Source: an uncultured Chloroflexia bacterium
Lineage (GTDB): Bacteria > Chloroflexota > Anaerolineae > Promineifilales > Promineifilaceae
Reading direction: 5' to 3'
Length of the DNA: 64,000 nt
Assembly (NCBI GenBank): GCA_963767495.1
Contig: CAVYDY010000004.1
Location: 156,985-220,984 of the forward strand
Position numbers and translations under genes: made by a program
Notes under the pieces: model-generated
Databases searched by the model: none
Told to the model about the DNA's origin: nothing
Seen by the model: the letters and a program-made list of their open reading frames with translations, nothing else
Shown here: piece after piece, positions 6,480 to 64,000 of the stretch
How the letters are laid out: each line of letters opens with the position of its first letter
Numbering within the stretch: the stretch's first letter is position 1

Positions 6480-7787
6480 ATGCACGATTCTGAACTTATC
6501 ATTGCCCTCTTTCTGCTGATTGCCGCCGTTGTCACCGGTCTGGGATCCAAAATCGGCCGCTGGTACATCAGCATGCCCATGGTCTTCGTCCTGGCCGGCA
6601 TCTTGGTCGGCCCGCGGATGTCAGAAATCCTTTCTGTCTACCCCGCCTCCGACTTCGTCCAGCTACTGGCAGAAGTGACCCTGGCGCTGATTTTGTTCGC
6701 CGACGCTTCGACGTTAAGCCTGCGCGAGGCAAGCGACGATGCCCAGCTGCCCGGGAGGCTGCTGGCCTTCGGCCTGCCGCTGACCATCGTTCTCGGCGGC
6801 ATTGCCGGCAAGATTCTCTACCCTGAGCTTTCGATCGGCTACGCGCTGCTGATCGCCGCCATTCTCGCCCCGACCGACGCAAGCCTCGGCCTGCCCGTCT
6901 ACACAAATCCCAGCATACCTGTCCGTATTCGCCGCGCGTTGAATATCGAGAGCGGCCTCAACGACGGCATCGCCTCTCCTATCGTGCTGCTCTTTCTCGC
7001 GCTCACGCTGAGCGAGGAAGGGATCACGCTCGGCAACTGGCTCAGCGACGCCGCGGTCGAACTCTTCGTGGCCATTCTCGTCGGCCTGGCCATCGGCGTC
7101 GCCGGCGGCAAATTTCTGGAAACGGCCGTTGACCGGCGTTGGACTTCCAGTATGTGGAGCAAACTGGCCATCTTCGCCGTTGCCCTGGCCAGCTATTTCC
7201 TCTCCGTCGCCCTCGGCGGCAACGGCTTCGTCGCCGCTTTCGTCGGCGGCATCTTTTTCGGCCACGCTTCCCATCACAAATTGGCCGAACAAACAGAATT
7301 CACCGAGGCCAACGGCTCACTGCTGGCGATGCTAGTGTGGACCATCTTCGCCGCCATCTTCGTCACGCCGGAACTCCTTGACTACGCTATGAGATTCGAT
7401 GCCAGGGCAATCCTCTACGTCATATTGAGCCTGACTGTCGTGCGCATGCTGCCCGTGGCGATCAGCATGATCGGCAGCGGCCTGCGGCGCGATACCGTGT
7501 TGATCATGGGTTGGTTCGGGCCGCGCGGCCTCGCCTCCGTCGTCTTTGCCGTGCTGGCCGTCGCCAAATTTAGAGAATACGGCCTGGTGCCCGAACCCCT
7601 GGCCACCGTGGTCACCCTGACCATCATGTTCAGCGTTTTCGCCCACGGTTTCTCCGCCCAACCGCTTGTCAACTGGTACGCACGTCGCCTGGAGGAAGCG
7701 GAAGACGGTCATGTGGAACTTGAAGAGATGCCCGAAATGCGGCCCCGTTCCCGGATGTTGACTGCGCAGAAGGATGCGCACAAGTAA
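6480..7787 (+). CDS. cation:proton (Na+/H+) antiporter, CPA1/NhaP-like
   Basis: About 11-12 hydrophobic helices. LAPTDA and ESGLNDG motifs characteristic of Na+/H+ exchanger family proteins. Confidence 0.85.
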   Translation: MHDSELIIALFLLIAAVVTGLGSKIGRWYISMPMVFVLAGILVGPRMSEILSVYPASDFVQLLAEVTLALILFADASTLSLREASDDAQLPGRLLAFGLPLTIVLGGIAGKILYPELSIGYALLIAAILAPTDASLGLPVYTNPSIPVRIRRALNIESGLNDGIASPIVLLFLALTLSEEGITLGNWLSDAAVELFVAILVGLAIGVAGGKFLETAVDRRWTSSMWSKLAIFAVALASYFLSVALGGNGFVAAFVGGIFFGHASHHKLAEQTEFTEANGSLLAMLVWTIFAAIFVTPELLDYAMRFDARAILYVILSLTVVRMLPVAISMIGSGLRRDTVLIMGWFGPRGLASVVFAVLAVAKFREYGLVPEPLATVVTLTIMFSVFAHGFSAQPLVNWYARRLEEAEDGHVELEEMPEMRPRSRMLTAQKDAHK

Positions 7788-7946
7788 GGTCGCTGCCGTT
7801 CTTTTGCAGCAAACAGCCCATAGGGCCTGCGGACGTCAACATGCAAAACGCCTTAGTAGGCTTCCAGCCTACTTACCCTGCTAAACGGTGGTTTGCGGCC
7901 ACCGGCGGCAGACCACCAGCAACGACCATCAGCGCTGGAATGACGC

Positions 7947-8408
7947 ATGACCAACATCACCCAAATTCGCCCCGCCGCCAAGGACAACCAGCCGGCCATC
8001 AAACAGCTCATCCGCGAAGGGGGCATCAATCCGCTGGGCATCGACTATCCGCGTTTTCTCGTCGCCGTTGATGCCGCCGGAACCGTCGTCGGCTGCGGCC
8101 AGGTCAAGGAACATGGCGACGGCTCACGCGAACTCGCCTCAATCGTTGTCACCCGCGACTGGCGCGGGCGCGGCATCGCCGGTGAGCTTATCCAGGCGCT
8201 GCAGGAAAAGCACGGCTCCCCGCTGTGGCTCACCTGTATGGACCGCCTCGTCCCCTTCTACCAACCTTTTGGCTTCACGCAGATCACGTCAGGCCGGGAA
8301 ATGCCGCCCTATTTCCGCCGCGCCGTTCGCCTATTCAAGCTCTACCAGGCGCTTACCCGCCACAAAGGAATCTTGGCGGTCATGGTCTGGCCTGGCGCGG
8401 AAGAATGA
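7947..8408 (+). CDS. GNAT family N-acetyltransferase
   Basis: Acetyl-CoA binding motif A region VTRDWRGRGIAGELI followed by FYQPFGF. Confidence 0.8.
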   Translation: MTNITQIRPAAKDNQPAIKQLIREGGINPLGIDYPRFLVAVDAAGTVVGCGQVKEHGDGSRELASIVVTRDWRGRGIAGELIQALQEKHGSPLWLTCMDRLVPFYQPFGFTQITSGREMPPYFRRAVRLFKLYQALTRHKGILAVMVWPGAEE

Positions 8409-8659
8409 GCCGCTGTCCTCGCTAAGAAATCTAGCCAAGCGACAAGTAATAGGATATCATAATATATGTAAACGCTCGTCGCCGGGGATGCTGTCCATCC
8501 GCTGCCCGACCGTTCGCCTTGCCCTATGTGAACTATCGATGCACCTATCAGCCGCGAAGCGATCAGAACAAAACGCAGCCGCGGCCAGAGCTTACTAATC
8601 ACAACCACAAGCGGCGTTTACGTTGTCAGCACCAACCGTGGTCCAAAGAGGAGACAACA

Positions 8660-8959
8660 ATGAGCAATCAAGGCCGTCCACGAAAAGCCGAAACGTGTGA
8701 GCACATGGCTCAGGTAGTGCAGGGCATCGCACCTAACACCCCAGAAGGGTGCGAAGAATGCCTGGAAATGGGCGACAGCTGGGTGCACCTGCGTCTGTGC
8801 CTGATCTGCGGCCATGTCGGCTGCTGCAACAATTCAAAAAACAAGCACGCCAGCAAACATTATGAGAGCACCGGCCATCCTGTCATTCGCTCCTTCGAAC
8901 CGGGCGAGAACTGGATGTGGTGCTACGAAGATGAGGAATTCATCGTCCCCAAGAAATAG
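8660..8959 (+). CDS. UBP-type zinc finger (ZnF-UBP) domain protein
   Basis: The Cys/His pattern CEEC...HLRLCLICGHVGCC...KHASKHYESTGHP is typical of ZnF-UBP. ATG at 8660 is preceded by AAGAGGAG. The longer track ORF from 8519 has a non-protein-like N-terminus. Confidence 0.75.
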   Translation: MSNQGRPRKAETCEHMAQVVQGIAPNTPEGCEECLEMGDSWVHLRLCLICGHVGCCNNSKNKHASKHYESTGHPVIRSFEPGENWMWCYEDEEFIVPKK

Positions 8960-8967
8960 ACGAGCCG

Positions 8968-11900
8968 ATGGCCGACCAATTCACAGACGCGCCGCAGATG
9001 CCCGATGGCTACGCGGACAAACTACGCCAGGCGCAGGCCAGCCGCGCCATGCAGGGAGAACGGCGCGTTATCACGCTGCTGTTTTGCGACGTGACCGGCT
9101 CCACGGCGATGGCTGAAAAGCTTGATCCGGAAGAGTGGGCCGAGATCATGAACGAAGCTTTTCAATACATGATCGCCCCCATCTACACGTATGAAGGAAC
9201 GGTGGCCCGCCTGATGGGCGACGCCGTCCTCGCCTTTTTCGGCGCGCCCATCGCCCATGAAGATGATCCGCAAAGAGCTGTCCTGGCTGGATTGGATATT
9301 GTCACCGGCATCGAACAGTTCGCCGCCGAAATTGAAGCGACCTACCGTATGGCCTTCAACGTACGTGTGGGTATCAATACCGGCCCGGTCGTCGTCGGCG
9401 AAATCGGGCCCGATCTCGCGGTGGAGTACACGGCGATGGGCGATGCGGTCAACCTGGCCGCGCGCATGGAGCAAACGGCCGAACCGGGAACGGTGCAGAT
9501 AGCCGAGAACAGCTACCAGCTGGTTGAACCCTTCTTCAACGTCACCCCACTGGGGCCGCTTGCCGTCAAAGGCAAGGCGCAGCCGGTGAGAGCGTACCGC
9601 GTCGACAGCATTGCCGCCGAGCCGGGCAGCCTGCGCGGCCTGTCCGGGCTCGACTCGCCGCTGGTCGGCCGTGAAGCGGAGCTGGCCCAACTGCGCCAGA
9701 TCGTGAGCGCCCTACGCGAAAGCGAGCGCGGCCAGATCGTGTTCTTGACCGGGGAGGCGGGTCTGGGCAAGAGCCGCCTGATCGACGAACTGCACACCTA
9801 CTGGCTGGCCACGCGCCAGGCGACGCCGGATGGCTGGCGGCACTGGGAACAGATGGCCGCCGTTTCCTTCGAAGCCTCCCGGCCGTACGGCATGATCAAG
9901 CACCAGCTGCGCAGCGTCTGCCATATCAGCGATTCCGACACCGATGAACAGGCCCGCGGCAAGCTCGCCCATACAGTCAGCGTGTTCCCCCCTGCCCTGC
10001 AAGAACGCCTGAATCTCCTCTACGCCATCCTGCTGGGCATCGGCGGCGAAGAATCTGAACTACATCCCGAAGGGGAAAACTTCAAACGAGAGCTGTTCGA
10101 CGCGATGCTGAAGGCCAACCGCCTGCGCGCCGCCGACCAACCAACGGTCATGGTCGCCGACGATATTCATTGGAGCGATCCCGCATCGACTGAGGAATTG
10201 GAGAACCTGCTCAAACTGACGCTCGATCTGCCTATTTTGTTCTTGGCCATCATGCGACCCGAGCGAGACAGCGCCGCCTGGGCCATGAAAGAGCGGGTCG
10301 CCCTTGACTATGCGCCGCAGTTCTCAGAAATCAACCTCCGGCCACTGAGCAGCGTTGAAAGCGCCAACCTGGTCGACCAGCTGCTGCCTATCGAGGATAT
10401 GCCCACTGCCGTACGCGAGATGATTCTGCAGCGCACTGACGGCAATCCTTTCTTCATCGAAGAAGTCATCCGTTCCCTCCTGGACAGCGGCGCCTTGCAG
10501 CAGTCGGCGGGTGAACTGCACTGGAATCCGGGACAATCAACAGCGCAGATCTCAATCCCGGGAAATGTCCAGGCCCTTCTCGCTGCGCGCATCGACCGCC
10601 TGGAAAAAGATTCGCGGCACACGCTGCAGCTGGCCGCCGTAATCGGCCGTAATTTCTACCGCCGCGTGCTAGATACGATCAGCGATACGGCCGCCATTCT
10701 TGATGAACAGCTGCGCGAGTTGGAGGCCCTGGCCTTTATTCGCGAGGCGGCCCGCCTGCCCGAAGTGGAGTACGCCTTCCGCCATGCGCTTACCCGCGAC
10801 GCGGCCTATGCCACGATCCTGCGCCGCCGGCGGCGGCAGTTCCACAAACGCGTCGGAGAGGCGTTCGAGGCGCTGTTCCCCGACCGCCTCGAAGAAGAAG
10901 CGCACCGCCTGGCCGAACATTTCAGCGAGGCGCTCATTCTGGACAAGGCGCAGCATTATTACACGATGGCCGGCGATCATGCGGGTCGTCTTTACGCCAA
11001 CAATGAGGCGATCGAGCATTACGGTAAGGCGATCCGCCTCGCTCGCGACAGCGGTACGGACCAGCAGCTGGCCCGGCTCTATAAGCGGCTGGGTCGTACT
11101 TACGAAGCGGACGGCCATTACGACAACGCGCTGGCCATGCACAAGGAGATGATCGCACTGGCCGAGCAGCGCGGCGCTCCCTCATTGAAGCTGCAGGCGC
11201 TGCTATCGGAAGCAACCATCCGCGGCACATTTACAGACAAATTCGACGCCCGCAAAGGGTATGCGCTGTCCAACGAGGCGCTGACTCTGGCGCGCGAGCT
11301 GGGCGACGCGCGCGCGGAATCCAAGGCGTATTGGAATCTCTCCCTGCTGGGCACCTATGCGGTCCAAGATGTCCACCAGACCATCGAACACGGCGAGCAG
11401 GCGGTATCCATCGCCCGCAAGCACAGGCTGCGCGAAGAACTTGCCTACGCGCTGCATGACCTCGCCCGTCCCTATGCGATGGCAGGTCGTCTGGCCGACG
11501 GCCAGATCGCTTTGGAAGAGGCGGCGCAGCTGTGGCGTGAACTCGGCCGTTCCAACATGGTTGCCGACAACCGCACGACGCTGGCTGAGAACCTGAATCT
11601 GCAGGGAGATTTGCTGAACGGCATCAACAAGTGCGAAGAGGCTTTACGGATAAGCCGCCGCACAAGCAGCTATTGGGGCCAGGCATACGCGCTGGCGACA
11701 ATGGCGCCCATGCTGCTGGAAATCGGCCGGGTTGATGAAGCGCTTGCCGCCTGGGACGAGGGGCTTGATGCCGCTGAACGGGCCAACTTCTCCGCCCCGC
11801 AGGTGTATGCCCGCGCTAATCTCGCCTTGAGCTACGCCTATCTTGGCGATCTTGAGCGCGCCTTCCAGGTGACGGATCAGGCACAGCGCGTCGTCGAGAA

Positions 11901-12471
11901 CTTGAAGATGCCCGCTTTCTCCAGCCTGCCGCAGCTGACCTATTCCTATCTGCACGCCTTAAACGGCAATGAAGAAGAAGCACGGCGTCTGTTTCCGTCC
12001 AGTATCTACTCCCTGACCATCGCCAGGTCCGAACCAATTCTGTTTGGCCTGGCAGTTTCCACGGAACTGCTAATCACCCTCGCTGAAGAAGATTTCGCGG
12101 CGACGCTGAGCGGTGTCGATCAGGCACTGCGTGAGGCCAGGCAGAGCGGCCTGTCACTGCTCATCCCGGAACTGCAAATGATCAAAGCCCGGGCGCTGCA
12201 CGGCTTGAATCGCATCGATGAGGCGGCGCAGCTGCTCGCCGTCGCCGCGGAACATGCGCGCTCTTTTGGCGCGAAGAGGACTTTGCTGCCCATTCTCAGC
12301 CTGCAATCGCAGGTTGAGCAGGAGCAAGGCAATGAGCCTGCCGCAGCCGCCGCCCGGGCGGAAGGCCAGGCAGCAGCTGCCTTTATCGCCGGGCAGATCA
12401 GCGACCCCGATCTGCGCCGCAGCTTCTGGCAGACGGAGACGGCCGTACGGCTGAATGACGGCGCTGCCTGA
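8968..12471 (+). CDS. class III adenylate/guanylate cyclase domain fused to a STAND/AAA NTPase and TPR repeats
   Basis: Cyclase homology domain (ITLLFCDVTGSTAMAE..RLMGDAVLAFFGAP..GINTGPVVVGEIG..YTAMGDAVNLAARME). Walker A LTGEAGLGKSRL at aa ~260. Walker B VMVADDIHWSD. TPR-like C-terminal half. Starts 9 nt after the ZnF-UBP gene. Confidence 0.9.
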   Translation: MADQFTDAPQMPDGYADKLRQAQASRAMQGERRVITLLFCDVTGSTAMAEKLDPEEWAEIMNEAFQYMIAPIYTYEGTVARLMGDAVLAFFGAPIAHEDDPQRAVLAGLDIVTGIEQFAAEIEATYRMAFNVRVGINTGPVVVGEIGPDLAVEYTAMGDAVNLAARMEQTAEPGTVQIAENSYQLVEPFFNVTPLGPLAVKGKAQPVRAYRVDSIAAEPGSLRGLSGLDSPLVGREAELAQLRQIVSALRESERGQIVFLTGEAGLGKSRLIDELHTYWLATRQATPDGWRHWEQMAAVSFEASRPYGMIKHQLRSVCHISDSDTDEQARGKLAHTVSVFPPALQERLNLLYAILLGIGGEESELHPEGENFKRELFDAMLKANRLRAADQPTVMVADDIHWSDPASTEELENLLKLTLDLPILFLAIMRPERDSAAWAMKERVALDYAPQFSEINLRPLSSVESANLVDQLLPIEDMPTAVREMILQRTDGNPFFIEEVIRSLLDSGALQQSAGELHWNPGQSTAQISIPGNVQALLAARIDRLEKDSRHTLQLAAVIGRNFYRRVLDTISDTAAILDEQLRELEALAFIREAARLPEVEYAFRHALTRDAAYATILRRRRRQFHKRVGEAFEALFPDRLEEEAHRLAEHFSEALILDKAQHYYTMAGDHAGRLYANNEAIEHYGKAIRLARDSGTDQQLARLYKRLGRTYEADGHYDNALAMHKEMIALAEQRGAPSLKLQALLSEATIRGTFTDKFDARKGYALSNEALTLARELGDARAESKAYWNLSLLGTYAVQDVHQTIEHGEQAVSIARKHRLREELAYALHDLARPYAMAGRLADGQIALEEAAQLWRELGRSNMVADNRTTLAENLNLQGDLLNGINKCEEALRISRRTSSYWGQAYALATMAPMLLEIGRVDEALAAWDEGLDAAERANFSAPQVYARANLALSYAYLGDLERAFQVTDQAQRVVENLKMPAFSSLPQLTYSYLHALNGNEEEARRLFPSSIYSLTIARSEPILFGLAVSTELLITLAEEDFAATLSGVDQALREARQSGLSLLIPELQMIKARALHGLNRIDEAAQLLAVAAEHARSFGAKRTLLPILSLQSQVEQEQGNEPAAAAARAEGQAAAAFIAGQISDPDLRRSFWQTETAVRLNDGAA

Positions 12472-54635: not shown

Positions 54636-54759
<124 letters not shown>

Positions 54760-54855
54760 CTGATTAAAAACGATTTTGTTAAATGAAAATGAATAAGATG
54801 ATAATCACGTGTTTCGCACACGCTGCTAAAATTCCAAAGTCTCCGTATCATACTC

Positions 54856-57803
<2,948 letters not shown>

Positions 57804-58118
57804 ATATGATACGGAGAATTTGAAATTCTCGCTCGTATATATATTGTTTTACGTGTGTGCTGTGTACGTTACGATTATCATCGTTATTCAGTTTTCAAGG
57901 TGCGATCCAACAACAAAGTAAGCTGCTGGCCACTGTCACCTAGAGTGACAGTGGCCAATTTCCTACGTATTCGTTTGATTAAGGTGCAACAGAGACAAAA
58001 AAAGCTGGCACACAACCAGCAAGACAAGTCAGGTGTGATGCCTTTCCAAATTATGTCGTCTGGTTACGTTCCATTAAACTCACTCACCGGCAGCGCCGGC
58101 AGCCAACTCACTAGCCAG

Positions 58119-58191
<73 letters not shown>

Positions 58192-58208
58192 TTTTAAGGT
58201 TGGTAAGG

Positions 58209-58282
58209 TGGGCCTGGTTGGACTCGAACCAACGACCTCTCCCTTATCAGAGGAACGCTCTAACCGGCTGAGCTACAGGCCC
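58209..58282 (-). tRNA. tRNA-Ile (anticodon GAU)
   Basis: GGGCCTGTAGCTCAGCCGGTTAGAGCGTTCCTCTGATAAGGGAGAGGTCGTTGGTTCGAGTCCAACCAGGCCCA folds as a cloverleaf. It occupies the canonical spacer position. Confidence 0.95.
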
Positions 58283-58452
58283 TCATCCGCTGACGCGGAA
58301 AACAATTTGGCCTGGCCAAACCGTTTTTGGTTTGTAAATGGACTTTAACAACTGAAAAGTGATAGAAACGTAGCAATCTTGCACAGTCACTCTCCGAAGA
58401 GAATGCTTGACCTAGAATTTGATCATGCCTCGCGGCACAATCGGAATCCATA

Positions 58453-59957
<1,505 letters not shown>

Positions 59958-60030
59958 AAAGTTTGTATCCGTTCGTTTTACGGAACTATTTTAAAAATTG
60001 ACTTGTTTGACACAAGAATTGCTATTCGAT

Positions 60031-60251: not shown

Positions 60252-61061
60252 GTATTTCATTTGGCATTAAAAAACGGCTCCGGTTGGAACCGCCCACCTA
60301 ATGTCTGAAATGTATTGTGCGGCTTCGCGCATCGCTAACGGCACATGTTTTTAAACAACGATGGGAAGTATAGCCATCGCATATGGGCCTGTCAACTATC
60401 TGAGAATCGCTCTCATAAAAGGATCTAATCCTTGCGCAGGGGGTGAAAACAAAGGGGGAAACGGCCGTTCTTGCACCCCGGCCGCTGACCCTTCCTCTAT
60501 TGTAGATCGCCATAGTTCGCGCCCCTGCAGGCAGAGCCATCTCCTGGTTAGCCGGACGGCAGCCAGTTCAGGCAGCGCCTGGAGTCCCCCTACCCTACCA
60601 CCGGAATGATCGCAGCTGGGATCGGCAGCAGAGAGCCGGCACCCCATACGGCCACTTCCGGGCGACTTACATCCCCCCTTGGCTACGCCCTGTGCAGCAC
60701 GGCAAACTTTGCGTCTCTGCGGGCAGCGCGATTGCGCAGGCGGACGGCTGTACAGACAATATGAGCGGTACGCACTTCCTTACCAAAGGCGCGCCCCCAA
60801 CAGCACAGTTTTGCCGGTCGCGCAGATCCATCATCGACCTAACTGCCCACGTACGCCAGTCCACAGCCCAGATCCCCGCCAGGCATTTCCCATAGAACGG
60901 CCGAAACAGCCGTTTTGCATAGCAGATGCATTTCGCCGTTTAGCGGGAGCACAGCAGCCAGCCTCCCCCGAAAACAACGACGCAGCAGGCTCCCTTCTTA
61001 TAATAGGAAAGCTGCTGCAGCCGTTTCGCAGTAGACCACAGCTTAATTCTGATCAATATAC

Positions 61062-61086
61062 GAAAAAAGTGGCGGCGAATGCCGCC
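61062..61086 (-). terminator. rho-independent terminator of the ATPase operon
   Basis: On the minus strand: GGCGGC-attc-GCCGCC followed by ACTTTTTTCG. It lies 25 nt after the stop of the 61111..61683 gene. Confidence 0.75.
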
Positions 61087-61110
61087 AAAATGGGGCGAAT
61101 AGATTATTAG

Positions 61111-61683
61111 CTACTCATAACTATTAAAGGCTTCCTGGATGCTTTTGCGCATCTGATCGAGGCTCATTTCGCTGCCCTGAAAATCGCCGGCGGCCAGGTA
61201 ATGATCGAGCAAAACCAGGCCGAGGCTGAACGTTTCACTGCGGCTGGCGCCGAAAGCGGCATTCAGCGCACCATGGGCCCTGCCGAGCTCGATCACCTGC
61301 TGCGGAGACACACGCACGGACGTCCACTTCTCCTCACCCTCTTTCGGCGGCAGCGACATATCCCACAACAGATAGAGTGAATCCATGTCAGTCACGCCTT
61401 CCGGGATTTCGCGGTTGCGACCGGCGACAGCCCGTCGCAGCGCCTCCAGGCGCGCCGTCAGAATCGTGATCGTCAAGTCAGCAAGGTCAGCACGCGCAAG
61501 CCCATCAGGCAGCCGGCTGGCAAGAACTTTCATCAGCGCCTTCTCATCAGGGCGCAAAGCGACATAAACATTCTGGCGGCTGACTGTGCGCGGTGGACGA
61601 CCCCGCTTTGGCTTCTCCTTGAGCAAAGCCGCCATCGTGGCGGAATCGTACTCAACTGGTTCCGTCTTGTTTTTCTTGCTCAT
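61111..61683 (-). CDS. hypothetical protein with N-terminal AT-hook-like KRGRPPR motif
   Basis: Protein-like composition. Starts 9 nt after the ATPase stop codon. No recognisable domain apart from the basic GRP motif. Confidence 0.6.
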   Translation of the reverse strand: MSKKNKTEPVEYDSATMAALLKEKPKRGRPPRTVSRQNVYVALRPDEKALMKVLASRLPDGLARADLADLTITILTARLEALRRAVAGRNREIPEGVTDMDSLYLLWDMSLPPKEGEEKWTSVRVSPQQVIELGRAHGALNAAFGASRSETFSLGLVLLDHYLAAGDFQGSEMSLDQMRKSIQEAFNSYE

Positions 61684-61692
61684 GTGCGCGAA

Positions 61693-62565
61693 CTACTCCG
61701 CCTGGCGATAACCGGAATGGTTCGCCAGGAATTCTTCGACAAACGGCCCATTCACCTGAAAATCATCAGTGGAAAGAAGCTCTAGGCAGAGGTGCAGCCC
61801 AAGCAGGCAAATGCTGCGCGGGTAGCCGCGTGTTTCCTGCCAGATGGGCATAATCGCGTCGTCGGTAAACAACGGCTGCAGTTTACTATCCCGTCCCGCG
61901 GCCAGCAGCCTGTACTCGATGAGGGACTTGGTGTCATCAGGCGTCAAGGGATCAAGCGAGGATCGCGTGGCCACACGATCATTGAAGTCAGGCACAGTGC
62001 GCAGCTTTAGGTCAAGCTCAGGCCGGCCAAGCAAAATCAACTGGTACGCCTTCCCCCCTTTGGGATCGCGGTAGTTCAACAGACTGCGCAGGGCGAGAAA
62101 CTGCTCCTCTTCCAATTCATGCGCTTCATCGATGATCAACAGCGGCAAGATACCTTCCTCCGCCTTCTGGGTAAGGAACGTGCGCAGTTCATTCATCTGG
62201 TGCTCAGTCGCGCGCCGCGTGCGCAGCCCAAATTCGGCAGCGATGCGGCGCAAGAGCAGCAGGCCGCTGCGCTTCGGCGGCTCATCGACACGCGCGGGAA
62301 TAAAATCAGGTCGCCTTTGGTAGCGGCTGAAAAACCAGGAGGCCAAAGTCGTCTTGCCGGTCCCCACCTCGCCAACCACGACGGACGCACCCTGCGCAGC
62401 CTCAACCATATAGCTGACTTTGGACAGCGCCCGCCTAGTCTCCGTCGAGAGGTACATGAAGCGCGGATCCGCTTCAATACTGAATGGCGGCACCACCATA
62501 CCAATGCGGTTCCAATTGGGATTGATGCCGCTGATACCAATGCTGGTCTGCAAATCAATTGCCAT
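61693..62565 (-). CDS. ExeA/TniB-like AAA+ ATPase (AAA_22 type)
   Basis: Walker A VVGEVGTGKTTL. Walker B LLIIDEAHEL. Then LILLGRPEL...RVATRSSLDPL...IEYRL..AG......F...A......TRGYPRSI, which follows the ExeA (COG3267) pattern. Confidence 0.8.
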   Translation of the reverse strand: MAIDLQTSIGISGINPNWNRIGMVVPPFSIEADPRFMYLSTETRRALSKVSYMVEAAQGASVVVGEVGTGKTTLASWFFSRYQRRPDFIPARVDEPPKRSGLLLLRRIAAEFGLRTRRATEHQMNELRTFLTQKAEEGILPLLIIDEAHELEEEQFLALRSLLNYRDPKGGKAYQLILLGRPELDLKLRTVPDFNDRVATRSSLDPLTPDDTKSLIEYRLLAAGRDSKLQPLFTDDAIMPIWQETRGYPRSICLLGLHLCLELLSTDDFQVNGPFVEEFLANHSGYRQAE

Positions 62566-62665
62566 AACTTATCCCCACGGCGCCAGCAGGCGCTGATTAT
62601 CTTCCATGTAATGGCTAGATTGTAACAACGATAGCGTTTCAATACAAGCCGAGCCCATTAGATCG

Positions 62666-62694
62666 TTGACATCGCCATTCTATTCTGCTAGACT
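62666..62694 (+). promoter_or_regulatory. near-consensus sigma-70 promoter pointing right
   Basis: TTGACA (62666-62671), 17-nt spacer, TAGACT (62689-62694), within an AT-rich intergenic region. Confidence 0.4.
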
Positions 62695-63231
62695 GCCGAT
62701 TATGGTATAAATCTGGCAATATAGGCATATAGATGCTATATTTTCACAATGTATAGCCTATTATGAAGCTGGCATTCGCGAAGAAACGGTTCAAAAAGCA
62801 TTGATTTAGCCGCTATGAAGATCAGTGGAGTGATGATTATTGGAAGCGCAGCAGGGGAGAATGGCACCCCTGGCGTGAGGTCAACGAAGAAATGGCGACG
62901 GCCGCCTGAGTCGCGCGGCCGTTATTGCGCCTGCTAAGGGCGCTAGAAAAGACAACGGCCAGACGCCGCCACGTCTGGCCTACATTCATACACCCGTAAG
63001 CTATACCTCTGCTTATGTGCCGCCAACACGAAAAACAGAGCCCCTTCATTGGGGAGGGGGAATTTGTATCCCTTTTGCATAGCTCACTAGCTAGGTATGA
63101 GCATAACACAGCCGATCTACGATGTCAACCAGGCAGTAAGGACATTATCGGGCTGTTAACGGAGCAGACTTCGGCCGCCGCCAATGGCCGTAGATGCTCC
63201 TGTTATGTCTACCTGAAAGAGTGGCAACGCT

Positions 63232-64000
63232 TTGAAAGAGAAGCAGCCAGCGGCCGACCGCCATCGGATCCTGGCGGATGCACAGCAGCTATTGATGGCC
63301 CGGCGCGCCGCACTGCGCCAGGCCAGGAAAGGGAGCAATATCTCCCCGACGTTCGCTGATCCCGGCCGCTCCCCCCACCCTGAACCAGACAAATCCAATC
63401 GGACAACTTCGCTCGCTGAACTGGCCGCGGCAGTCGACAGCCTTCCTCCCCATTTGGGCTGGGGCAGCAAGGCACAAACGGCTGTCTTGCGCGCCGCAGC
63501 ACGGCGGCGCCGCAGCACACCATCGCCGGCCGATGAGAAGCCGGCCTGGTCAACGCCTACAGCACCATGCCCACCGAGAGCCAACGCACCGGACGAGCGC
63601 AGCGAGTCCAACTTCTCCGCCGACGGCCGTATTTCTCTGGCGCCGTCGCTGGGACTGGCCATTCTGCGCCACAATCAGGCGGCTGCAGCCCGCTTGTGGC
63701 TGCTGCTGCGCGCCCTTGATCAACAGGGGCGGGGCGCGATCTCCCGCGAACACGCACACAGCGCCTTCACGGACAAAACATCGGCGCTGCACATCTGCGG
63801 ACGCCGCCATCTGCGCAACCTGCTCAACGCCGGCAGCGGACTTTTCTGGGAAGTGGACGACAGGATGATCTGGCTGCGATCGGCTGTGCATGTGGCGCGT
63901 TCACTCGGCGTTGCTCATTTTCGCGGCCAGGACGTGGCCCTACCGGTCAAGGCGCTCACCGGCGGCATTGGCGCCGTGCGCGCTAACCTATTCGCCAGCT
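63232..64000 (+). CDS. hypothetical protein, 3'-truncated by the window end (not in the supplied ORF track); start uncertain (TTG 63232 or ATG 63295)
   Basis: The frame with codons starting at 63232, 63235 and so on is open from 63217 to nt 63999. It reads ..ISLAPSLGLAILRHNQAAAARLWLLLRALDQQGRGAISREHAHSAFTDKTSALHICGRRHLRNLLNAGSGLFWEVDDRMIWLRSAVHVARSLGVAHFRGQDVALPVKALTGGIGAVRANLFAS. The C-terminal half is protein-like and the N-terminal half is low-complexity. Confidence 0.5.
   Translation, partial: MKEKQPAADRHRILADAQQLLMARRAALRQARKGSNISPTFADPGRSPHPEPDKSNRTTSLAELAAAVDSLPPHLGWGSKAQTAVLRAAARRRRSTPSPADEKPAWSTPTAPCPPRANAPDERSESNFSADGRISLAPSLGLAILRHNQAAAARLWLLLRALDQQGRGAISREHAHSAFTDKTSALHICGRRHLRNLLNAGSGLFWEVDDRMIWLRSAVHVARSLGVAHFRGQDVALPVKALTGGIGAVRANLFAS

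Follow-up and report, generated by a model that had tools for sequence, protein, structure and literature searches.

What does an AAA+ ATPase with the sequence affinities of ExeA and TniB do when neither secretion nor transposition genes accompany it? We addressed this question at a two-gene operon in a 64,000-nucleotide stretch of DNA (the window; G000:C4:156985-220984) from a Candidatus (Ca.) Promineifilaceae genome, assembly G000 (4 contigs, 4.98 Mb, 90% complete), in which a 290-residue ATPase is encoded together with a 190-residue protein. The original prediction, made from the letters of the window, had offered two possibilities, a mobile or plasmid-derived element and an uncharacterised DNA-targeting ATPase system, and the latter remains the best general description. 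We find that the partner is, by its predicted structure, a single-chain double ribbon-helix-helix (RHH) protein and that, with a divergent gene (p438) and a small RNA (sRNA) antisense to the p438 leader, the pair probably constitutes a putative, undescribed DNA-handling module. Our tentative preference, to which we give just under an even chance, is for an RHH protein that serves as site-specific adaptor and repressor and is coupled to an AAA+ switch acting on DNA, within a domesticated, plasmid-replicon-like module that is specific to the Ca. Promineifilaceae lineage.

The ATPase and its ribbon-helix-helix partner

The ATPase gene (61693-62565, minus strand, 290 aa) is followed, after a gap of 9 nt (61684-61692), by the open reading frame (ORF) of the 190-aa protein (61111-61683, minus strand); in relatives the two genes overlap. 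An intrinsic terminator (61060..61087, minus strand) closes the operon with a hairpin at 61087..61070 (TGGCGGC-ATTC-GCCGCCA) and the T-run CTTTTTTCG, and it stands between the two genes and the rRNA promoters downstream. These gene structures are established directly: the ORFs and their translations bear out the operon, the gap and the terminator as reported, along with the quoted motifs, which are GEVGTGKTT, LLIIDEAHEL, LLGRPEL and TRGYPRSI in the ATPase and KRGRPPR in its partner.

The ATPase is a bare AAA+ module. A conserved N-terminal PF..DPRF.YLS motif is followed by Walker A (GEVGTGKT) and Walker B (IIDEAH) sequences, no further Pfam domain appears down to E = 1, and the chain stops after the AAA+ lid, with no transmembrane or peptidoglycan-binding domain. 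Pfam places it in AAA_22 (3.6e-23), scores TniB under the cut-off (E 0.0036; 17 bits against 22.4) and returns no CbiA, AAA_31 or ParA match, so the protein is not of the ParA/MinD type with a deviant Walker A motif. PHROG returns phrog_296, a MuB-type 'DNA transposition protein', at 1.6e-18, PADLOC returns TnsC at 8e-7, and the closest solved structure by sequence is ShTnsC, at a marginal E of 0.029. The best NCBIfam model, TIGR03015 (XrtA/PEP-CTERM-associated), aligns over the full length of the protein (residues 24-280 against 9-263 of the 269 model positions) and reaches 132.5 bits against a curated cut-off of 324.5. Orthologues are 70-80% identical, with no variation in the Walker A and Walker B residues or in the Arg residues downstream.

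None of the usual partners of such an ATPase was found, as originally stated. The Secretin domain (PF00263) has no match in the 90%-complete G000 genome, in a search that did find it in control genomes; the nearest rve transposase gene (C4:15707) is 200 kb from the pair; and among the neighbouring genes there is no rve or Mu domain and no secretion or exopolysaccharide gene. A search for TniQ gave no match, and its controls gave none either. A full-text literature search on COG3267/ExeA returned only papers on type II secretion or unrelated subjects, and databases label such ATPases 'general secretion pathway protein A', a routine label that the present analysis corrects for several hundred proteins. 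ATPase orthologues are confined to the order, with relatives in just 5 of 150 other Chloroflexota genomes, at no more than 32% identity. Two of these five are ordinary TniB-like genes linked to an rve/Mu transposase (28-30% identity); the other three are ExeA-like ATPases with an overlapping small ORF that has no detectable homology to the RHH family, and two of these three adjoin an HTH_36/RP-C-like (replication-protein-like) gene.

An AT-hook-like motif had been taken as the sole recognisable feature of the 190-aa protein, a description that structure search overturns. Sequence comparison is silent: there is no Pfam, NCBIfam, PHROG or PADLOC match, the profile finds nothing in the PDB below E 0.4, and tblastn finds nothing in PLSDB. 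In the AlphaFold2 (AF2) model, which has a predicted local distance difference test score (pLDDT) of 84, rising above 90 over both repeats, and a predicted template modelling score of 0.76, two RHH repeats follow a disordered, basic N-terminus. Repeat 1 comprises a strand at 37-43 and helices at 45-57 and 64-86; repeat 2 comprises a strand at 119-125 and helices at 127-144 and 148-165, and is succeeded by a C-terminal helix. Foldseek ranks TraY chains of the F relaxosome first (9f11_G, E 4e-3, prob 1.0), then AcaB, DndE and VirC2. Structural alignment gives Z 7.6 for TraY (9f0x_E, 104/113 residues), 5.7 for single-chain Arc, 5.4 for DndE and 3.4 for VirC2, and repeat 2 is matched by many RHH antitoxins. 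The AT-hook itself (KRGRPPR, residues 26-32, with K-R-G-R-P at 26-30) is well conserved in an alignment of the family (A2), where a variable N-terminus precedes invariant P25, G28, R29 and P30 within K-P-K-R-G-R-P, and two further blocks carry the RHH pattern. On the model, the protein is a single-chain double RHH, a predicted built-in pseudo-dimer like TraY, with the AT-hook on its N-terminal arm; judged by sequence, these proteins form a new, narrow RHH family outside the described RHH sequence families.

The family is as narrow in distribution as it is in sequence. All 681 relatives in a metagenomic protein collection belong to Chloroflexota, the named ones to Promineifilaceae, Ardenticatenaceae or Anaerolineales; a profile search of 1.84 billion representatives yielded only 47 clusters; and the named records are all metagenome-assembled genomes (MAGs) of Ca. 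Promineifilum, Leptofilum, Leptovillus and related taxa. Among whole genomes, the protein occurs in 102 of 143 of the same family, in 4 of 7 of a sister family (~30% identity) and in none of 195 others of the class; the first two of these tallies, like that of p438 matches per genome, take in one unpublished genome (G226), on which no single claim depends. A survey of co-occurrence, which had been proposed at the outset, covered 80 species-level loci, with each count taken over the loci that have enough flank: the ATPase gene lies immediately upstream of the 190-aa gene on the same strand in 77 of 77, and the divergent p438 lies upstream of the pair in 68 of 68. The sister family keeps the ATPase-RHH adjacency at 37% and 29% identity. 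This strict coupling of the RHH gene to an AAA+ gene suggests an adaptor-plus-switch pair that acts on DNA, in which the two proteins would touch each other.

The control region, p438 and an antisense RNA

Between the ATPase gene and p438 lies an AT-rich divergent control region of 666 bp (62566-63231; GC 0.47-0.48). Its p438 promoter is shared across the family. The p438 promoter of G000 (TTGACA-17-TAGACT, 62666..62694, plus strand; 10/12 matches in the scan), which would give a leader of ~540 nt, is homologous to one conserved in all relatives, visible as the block TTGACAT..ATTCTGATAGACTG in an alignment of 14 orthologous intergenic regions (A3). In relatives, a 19-bp AT-rich palindrome, AATCTATA-N3-TATAGATT, abuts the -35 box of this promoter. 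It occurs once per orthologous locus; of 20 family loci scanned, 17 have a perfect copy and 3 a copy with 1-2 mismatches. The Ca. Leptofilum chromosome NZ_OZ244997.1 is one record with the perfect form. The G000 window has no match within 3 mismatches, and what appear from the sequence and the A3 alignment to be degenerate, rearranged remnants of this putative operator (62716..62762, no strand) lie downstream of the p438 promoter. At 11 loci of p438 paralogues, the palindrome is found in none, and the RHH gene is likewise missing from all 11. Because protein and site are both unique to the orthologous locus, and neither accompanies other p438-family genes, the foremost candidate to bind the palindrome is the RHH protein. 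Sites for it at the rRNA promoters were considered and dropped, as palindrome-like sequences there beat shuffles in only 4 of 15 loci.

At the ATPase end of the region, several relatives (L012:11487-11530, with equivalents in L013, L016, L017 and L027) have a minus-strand promoter resembling TTGACA-17-TAACAT that ends ~10 nt or less from the ATPase start codon, a sequence arrangement that suggests a leaderless ATPase mRNA; in G000 the gene is instead preceded by ~100 nt that contain a GGGGA ribosome-binding site.

The p438 leader is fully overlapped by an sRNA gene on the opposite strand (62947..63128, minus strand), with a predicted transcript of ~145 nt. Scanning located its promoter (TTGACA-17-TATGCT, 63128..63100) and its terminator (62980..62957), a 10-bp GC-rich hairpin with a T-rich tail. 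The ~190-bp block that holds the gene is more conserved than p438 itself, and the element is kept in 22 orthologous loci (E 1e-25 to 1e-57). RNAalifold folds it into 31 pairs in four helices, with 93.5% of cells paired against 88.6% in shuffles and 13 pairs showing compensatory change against 3.6 (0/500 shuffles reach the observed value in either case); sliding the partners lowers pairing to 32-51% of cells. The structure has more than 50 G.U cells that would be mismatches on the opposite strand and are valid only on the minus strand. Promoter, terminator, covariation and strand-specific G.U pairs together therefore identify an sRNA gene that runs antisense to the leader of p438. Its 3' end falls ~100 nt short of the p438 start codon, it carries a conserved UUGGCGG hairpin loop, and it has no Rfam family (best match sau-63, 28.9 bits against a gathering score of 100). 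On the mRNA strand, a conserved CCCC..GGGG hairpin is followed by a U-run, at which, to judge from sequence, the leader may undergo attenuation. The element precedes every p438 paralogue examined, in 1-3 tandem copies, and G000 has two copies, the second at G000:C3:398417-398553.

The p438 gene (5' part 63232..64000, plus strand) starts with TTG, encodes 438 aa and runs on beyond the window to G000:C4:221529. By sequence or profile the protein has no Pfam or PDB match and no similarity to Rep_3, tblastn finds nothing in PLSDB and its profile nothing in IMG/VR; leads from a protein atlas were HTH_36 and RepL. Its AF2 model, confident for residues 130-370 with a core pLDDT above 90, shows a disordered N-terminal third and then two winged-helix domains that form the core (residues 129-350). 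Structural superposition of residues 129-348 covers RepE54 from end to end (Z 6.4-7.3; 153-168 residues; chain 14-243), pi of R6K (2nra_C) aligns over 167 residues at Z 6.7, and residues 148-217 match single winged-helix domains at about Z 7. A single Asp is invariant and there is no conserved acidic triad, so p438 is unlikely to be a DDE transposase.

Members of the p438 family are matched more than once per genome, as copies or fragments, with a maximum of 15 in a single genome. Paralogues adjoin ParA or ParA-ParB in loci L041, L046 and L047, and stand directly after an ATPase_2+DUF234 gene, which encodes an AAA+/winged helix-turn-helix protein, in L037 (of G000), L039, L043 and L045. The trio of ATPase_2+DUF234 gene, sRNA element and p438 paralogue recurs in L039, L043 and L045. 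At the second p438-family gene of G000 (G000:C3:396522-401011, or L037:6522-11011; 30% identity), the ATPase_2+DUF234 gene comes before and a P22_AR_N/ORF6C antirepressor-like gene after. The repeated pairing of Rep-fold proteins with ATPases of the origin recognition complex (ORC) class in Chloroflexota suggests the same adaptor-plus-switch reading as does the operon itself. In L039, an ORF convergent with the p438 paralogue (8813-9583, plus strand) matches the eukaryotic-type PHAX RNA-binding domain (PF10258, 1e-16), which is unexpected in a bacterium.

Genomic setting and descent

The pair sits, as first described, between an rRNA operon and the AT-rich region. The rRNA operon (54639-59958; 16S at 58453-59958, 23S, 5S and two tRNAs) lies downstream on the same minus strand and is the sole one of G000. 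Across the survey, 28 of 80 loci have a 16S gene that starts 470-860 nt downstream of the pair and runs the same way, and another 28 have none in the flank, so the rRNA linkage is frequent and not obligatory; a contig end falls within 1.4 kb of the pair in 24 of 80, as expected at an assembly break caused by rRNA genes. The interval of ~660 nt that separates the operon terminator from the rRNA promoters (window 60300-61060), GC-rich and free of ORFs, is not conserved in sequence by blastn in relatives, where the same interval measures 470-860 nt in total.

Several lines of evidence speak to inheritance. The pair is single-copy in G000 and in nearly every genome, and the identity of the ATPase to that of G000, which ranges from 71 to 80%, rises with 16S identity (Spearman 0.78, n=13, among relatives that are not independent). 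The pair is inherited vertically in Ca. Promineifilaceae and apparently retained throughout the family. Four near-complete MAGs of the same genus (G213, G236, G265 and G326; 4-20 contigs, 86-97% complete) lack the pair, any 16S gene and the orthologue of the neighbouring metallo-beta-lactamase-fold gene. These apparent absences of rRNA-linked genes are explained by gaps in assembly or binning and not by losses, and a dispensable accessory island was rejected as unproven, because the module-less genomes lack the whole rRNA-bearing contig. The original prediction had named two findings that would make the pair ordinary. A standard transposase next to it was not found; wide conservation in a housekeeping role of known function holds by half, conservation being wide inside one family, with no known function attached.

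To the right of the pair, beyond the AT-rich region and p438, come genes for the metallo-beta-lactamase-fold protein, an EamA transporter, RpiB and a radical-SAM protein. At a distance of 8 kb from the module there is a ParA-ParB pair (L003:9928-11821; G000:C4:226927-228820), and another ParA-ParB set is on C1; in G163 orthologues of the former (63% identity) directly adjoin the module, and in the sister family (L023) a ParA/ParB-like pair directly follows the ATPase-RHH pair. The dnaA gene of G000 is on a different contig from the module, and in three near-complete relatives (G272, G282 and G130) dnaA and the module share a contig, 0.2-1.3 Mb apart. Base composition at the pair is normal (GC 0.56-0.61 against 0.56-0.58 for the genome). 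The palindromic octamer ACGGCCGT, with 39 copies in the window against 1.3 expected from shuffles and ~1 per 1.4 kb outside the rRNA genes, from which it is absent, is missing from 60469-63622 (3.15 kb), as had been pointed out; the gap is real and carries little weight, having a chance of roughly 0.1 and a longer counterpart at 7129-12439, and a foreign origin inferred from it was rejected as the gap is not significant. Elsewhere in G000, an IS21-like element occurs in four copies with identical match scores and frame lengths (C1:1478222, C1:3325419, C3:674845 and C4:15707), each with an rve transposase and an IstB-like ATPase that gives weak Bac_DnaA matches, and in a fifth, diverged copy (C3:902393).

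Single copy, fixed synteny, divergence that tracks 16S and the presence of dnaA on the same contig together show that the module is neither a currently mobile element nor a separate replicon. The pair is not a stray transposon fragment. The earlier suggestion of a mobile or plasmid-derived element falls in its mobile half (single copy, normal composition, synteny and tracking of 16S) and gains in its other half, as a RepE/pi-like gene with an antisense RNA supports plasmid-type ancestry; the DNA-targeting ATPase is retained and sharpened.

Competing explanations and known counterparts

Taken together, the Rep-fold gene and its long leader, the terminated countertranscript, the putative operator next to the promoter, the small RHH protein and the nearby ParAB make up the grammar of a plasmid basic replicon, as in pMV158, pIP501 and R1. 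This grammar, the family-wide fixation in the chromosome and the lack of iterons or a skew switch together point to a domesticated replicon-type module. The explanation that we tentatively favour is accordingly of a vertically inherited chromosomal module that would have the layout of such a replicon, with the RepE/pi-like p438 and its leader, overlapped by a constitutively promoted antisense RNA, to one side of the control region and the two-gene operon to the other. The two RHH repeats, acting as a pseudo-dimer, and the AT-hook, lying in the minor groove, would bind the palindrome; the bound protein would repress the initiator-like p438, as CopG, CopR and omega do in plasmids, and would also recruit or switch the ATPase as a site-specific adaptor. 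The ATPase would assemble on DNA in its ATP form, like TnsC and MuB. The module would have been retained after domestication of a plasmid-like replicon, with no part in type II secretion or transposition, and its output may be repression, partition-like positioning or help with initiation.

Several observations weigh against this explanation. The structural matches of p438 are middling (Z about 7) and amount to fold-level similarity. In G281, p438 (G281:C10:167221-168412; L019) is disrupted by two in-frame stops and gives a split match, and in G325, of the same genus (L020), it is shortened to a 283-aa ORF; the ATPase and RHH genes are nevertheless intact in both (78-80% and 66% identical to those of G000, with 78% and 66% in G281), which suggests that the pair has a role of its own. 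The sister-family pair has no p438 neighbour, the flanking proteins reaching hhalign probabilities below 1%, and the function of the pair therefore cannot depend strictly on p438. G000 has lost the perfect palindrome and still keeps the pair intact. There is no GC-skew switch at the locus, the cumulative skew of C4 turning near 90 and 300 kb and not at 219 kb, and no iteron or other direct-repeat array within 6 kb.

Among the rivals, a partition-like or chromosome-organising system, in which an AAA+ motor would replace ParA, strikes us as unlikely yet worth keeping in view. Here the RHH protein would be a centromere-binding adaptor, the palindrome a centromere and the Arg-rich tail a stimulator of the ATPase as in ParG/omega, so that the rDNA-proximal region would be segregated or positioned. 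The layout matches that of a type Ib cassette: an ATPase gene comes first, the small RHH gene after it encodes a flexible basic tail, and a palindromic site is found upstream. Several genomes have a second ParA/ParB set next to the module or no more than 8 kb away, and in the sister family such a set follows immediately downstream. Yet each locus has one palindrome and no repeat array, the G000 palindrome is degenerate, there are ParAB systems in any case and p438 paralogues use ordinary ParAB; to our knowledge, no AAA+ partition motor has been described. We think it distinctly less probable that the locus is a replication accessory, with the ATPase and p438 as a split ORC-like initiator or helicase loader at a present or recent second plasmid-type origin in the chromosome. 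The p438 fold, countertranscript control typical of plasmid rep genes, the pairing of Rep-like proteins with ORC-class ATPases in paralogue loci and distant Chloroflexota, and the nearby ParAB are all consistent with it, whereas the dnaA gene on the module's contig in three near-complete relatives, the unturned skew and lack of iterons argue against it, as do the sister-family pair with no adjoining p438 and the broken p438 of G281. On the same grounds of dnaA linkage (G272, G282 and G130), skew and iterons, the origin of a secondary replicon (chromid) was rejected.

Slightly less probable still, in our estimate, is the idea that the RHH protein does no more than regulate transcription, whether of its own operon, of p438 or of the downstream rRNA operon, and that the ATPase assists in this or has an unrelated function. 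RHH proteins are for the most part repressors, the palindrome is at a promoter, and 28 of 80 loci have a 16S gene that follows with the same orientation; the invariable gene coupling (77 of 77), with an ATPase (70-80%) that is more conserved than the RHH protein, nonetheless argues for joint function, and the rRNA version has further to contend with the 28 loci that lack rRNA adjacency, with promoter sites above shuffles in only 4 of 15 and with the terminator between the operons. The remaining two explanations start from database affinities. Similarity to TnsC, TniB and the phage 'DNA transposition protein', and the true rve/Mu-transposase-linked relatives in other Chloroflexota (28-30% identity), would fit a remnant of a Tn7/Tn5053/Mu-type module whose TniB/TnsC/MuB-like target-selecting ATPase outlived the transposase; given the single copy, the fixed syntenic site, vertical descent, the absence of an rve gene within 200 kb, a p438 that lacks a conserved acidic triad and strong purifying selection on the ATPase, we find this very improbable. 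We give even less credence to a true ExeA/GspA protein for type II secretion or pilus assembly, or an XrtA/PEP-CTERM-associated ATPase: names such as 'general secretion pathway protein A' and the rank of TIGR03015 as best NCBIfam model suggest it, against a score far under the cut-off, no transmembrane or peptidoglycan-binding domain, no secretin in a 90%-complete genome, no secretion or exopolysaccharide neighbours and a downstream partner that is an RHH protein and not GspB/ExeB.

A broader claim, which we put forward as a long shot deserving attention, is that the pair represents a new class of DNA-maintenance machine for segregation, positioning or origin licensing, plasmid-derived, with an ORC/TnsC-like AAA+ protein in place of ParA, and fixed beside the sole rRNA operon of Promineifilaceae. 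If the favoured adaptor-plus-AAA+ explanation is true, site-specific DNA handling in bacteria would have a fourth kind of motor, beside ParA, actin-like and tubulin-like systems, built from an ATPase class that ORC shares with transposons (TnsC, MuB). The analysis also brings to light a narrow family of predicted single-chain double-RHH/AT-hook proteins, a Chloroflexota-specific family of predicted RepE/pi fold and a structured antisense sRNA found with every member examined. The filamentous Promineifilaceae abound in activated sludge and have no genetic system; knowledge of their replicon-type modules is a prerequisite for vectors.

Set beside known systems, the module shares single parts with several. 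With ExeA/GspA and TIGR03015 proteins (COG3267), the ATPase has in common the PF..DPRF.YLS motif, the AAA_22 core and a full-length TIGR03015 alignment; it differs in its score far under the cut-off and in having no membrane or peptidoglycan-binding part and no secretin or exopolysaccharide locus. TniQ-TnsC of type V-K CRISPR-associated and Tn7-like transposons and MuB of Mu are minimal AAA+ ATPases that polymerise on DNA and are placed by a site-specific adaptor. The ATPase resembles TnsC and MuB in size class (290 aa against 276 aa for ShTnsC), in AAA_22, in its best sequence matches and in being encoded with a small DNA-binding partner; unlike them, it has no linked transposase and no element ends, is single-copy and vertically inherited, and has an RHH partner that is not of the TniQ fold, and its identity to TnsC is marginal (E 0.029). 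TraY of the F plasmid relaxosome and VirC2 of the Ti plasmid likewise carry two RHH repeats in one polypeptide as a pseudo-dimer, a likeness that here comes from a predicted model; the 190-aa protein departs from both in its 12-14% identity, which is no sequence similarity, in an extra N-terminal AT-hook and C-terminal helix and in the lack of nearby relaxase or conjugation genes.

The likeness extends to gene order in type Ib partition systems. ParF-ParG of TP228 and delta-omega of pSM19035 have an NTPase gene and then a small RHH gene whose product has a flexible basic N-terminal tail, with a palindrome upstream that doubles as an operator (here a putative one), whereas the motor at our locus is AAA_22 and not ParA-type, the RHH protein is a fused double repeat with an AT-hook and there is a single site in place of an array. 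Among plasmid copy-control circuits, the module differs from CopG, RNAII and RepB of pMV158, from CopR, RNAIII and RepR of pIP501 and from CopB, CopA and RepA of R1 in being chromosomal and family-wide with no iterons or origin signature, in a repressor candidate that is co-transcribed with an AAA+ ATPase and divergent from rep, and in a p438 that has no Rep_3 sequence similarity. In its model, p438 has the two consecutive winged-helix domains, WH1-WH2, of Rep_3-type initiators (RepE, pi and RepA), and with the copy-control systems the module shares an initiator-fold gene, a long leader, an overlapping terminated countertranscript with the U-rich loop UUGGCGG, a small repressor-type protein and an operator, putative here, at the rep promoter.

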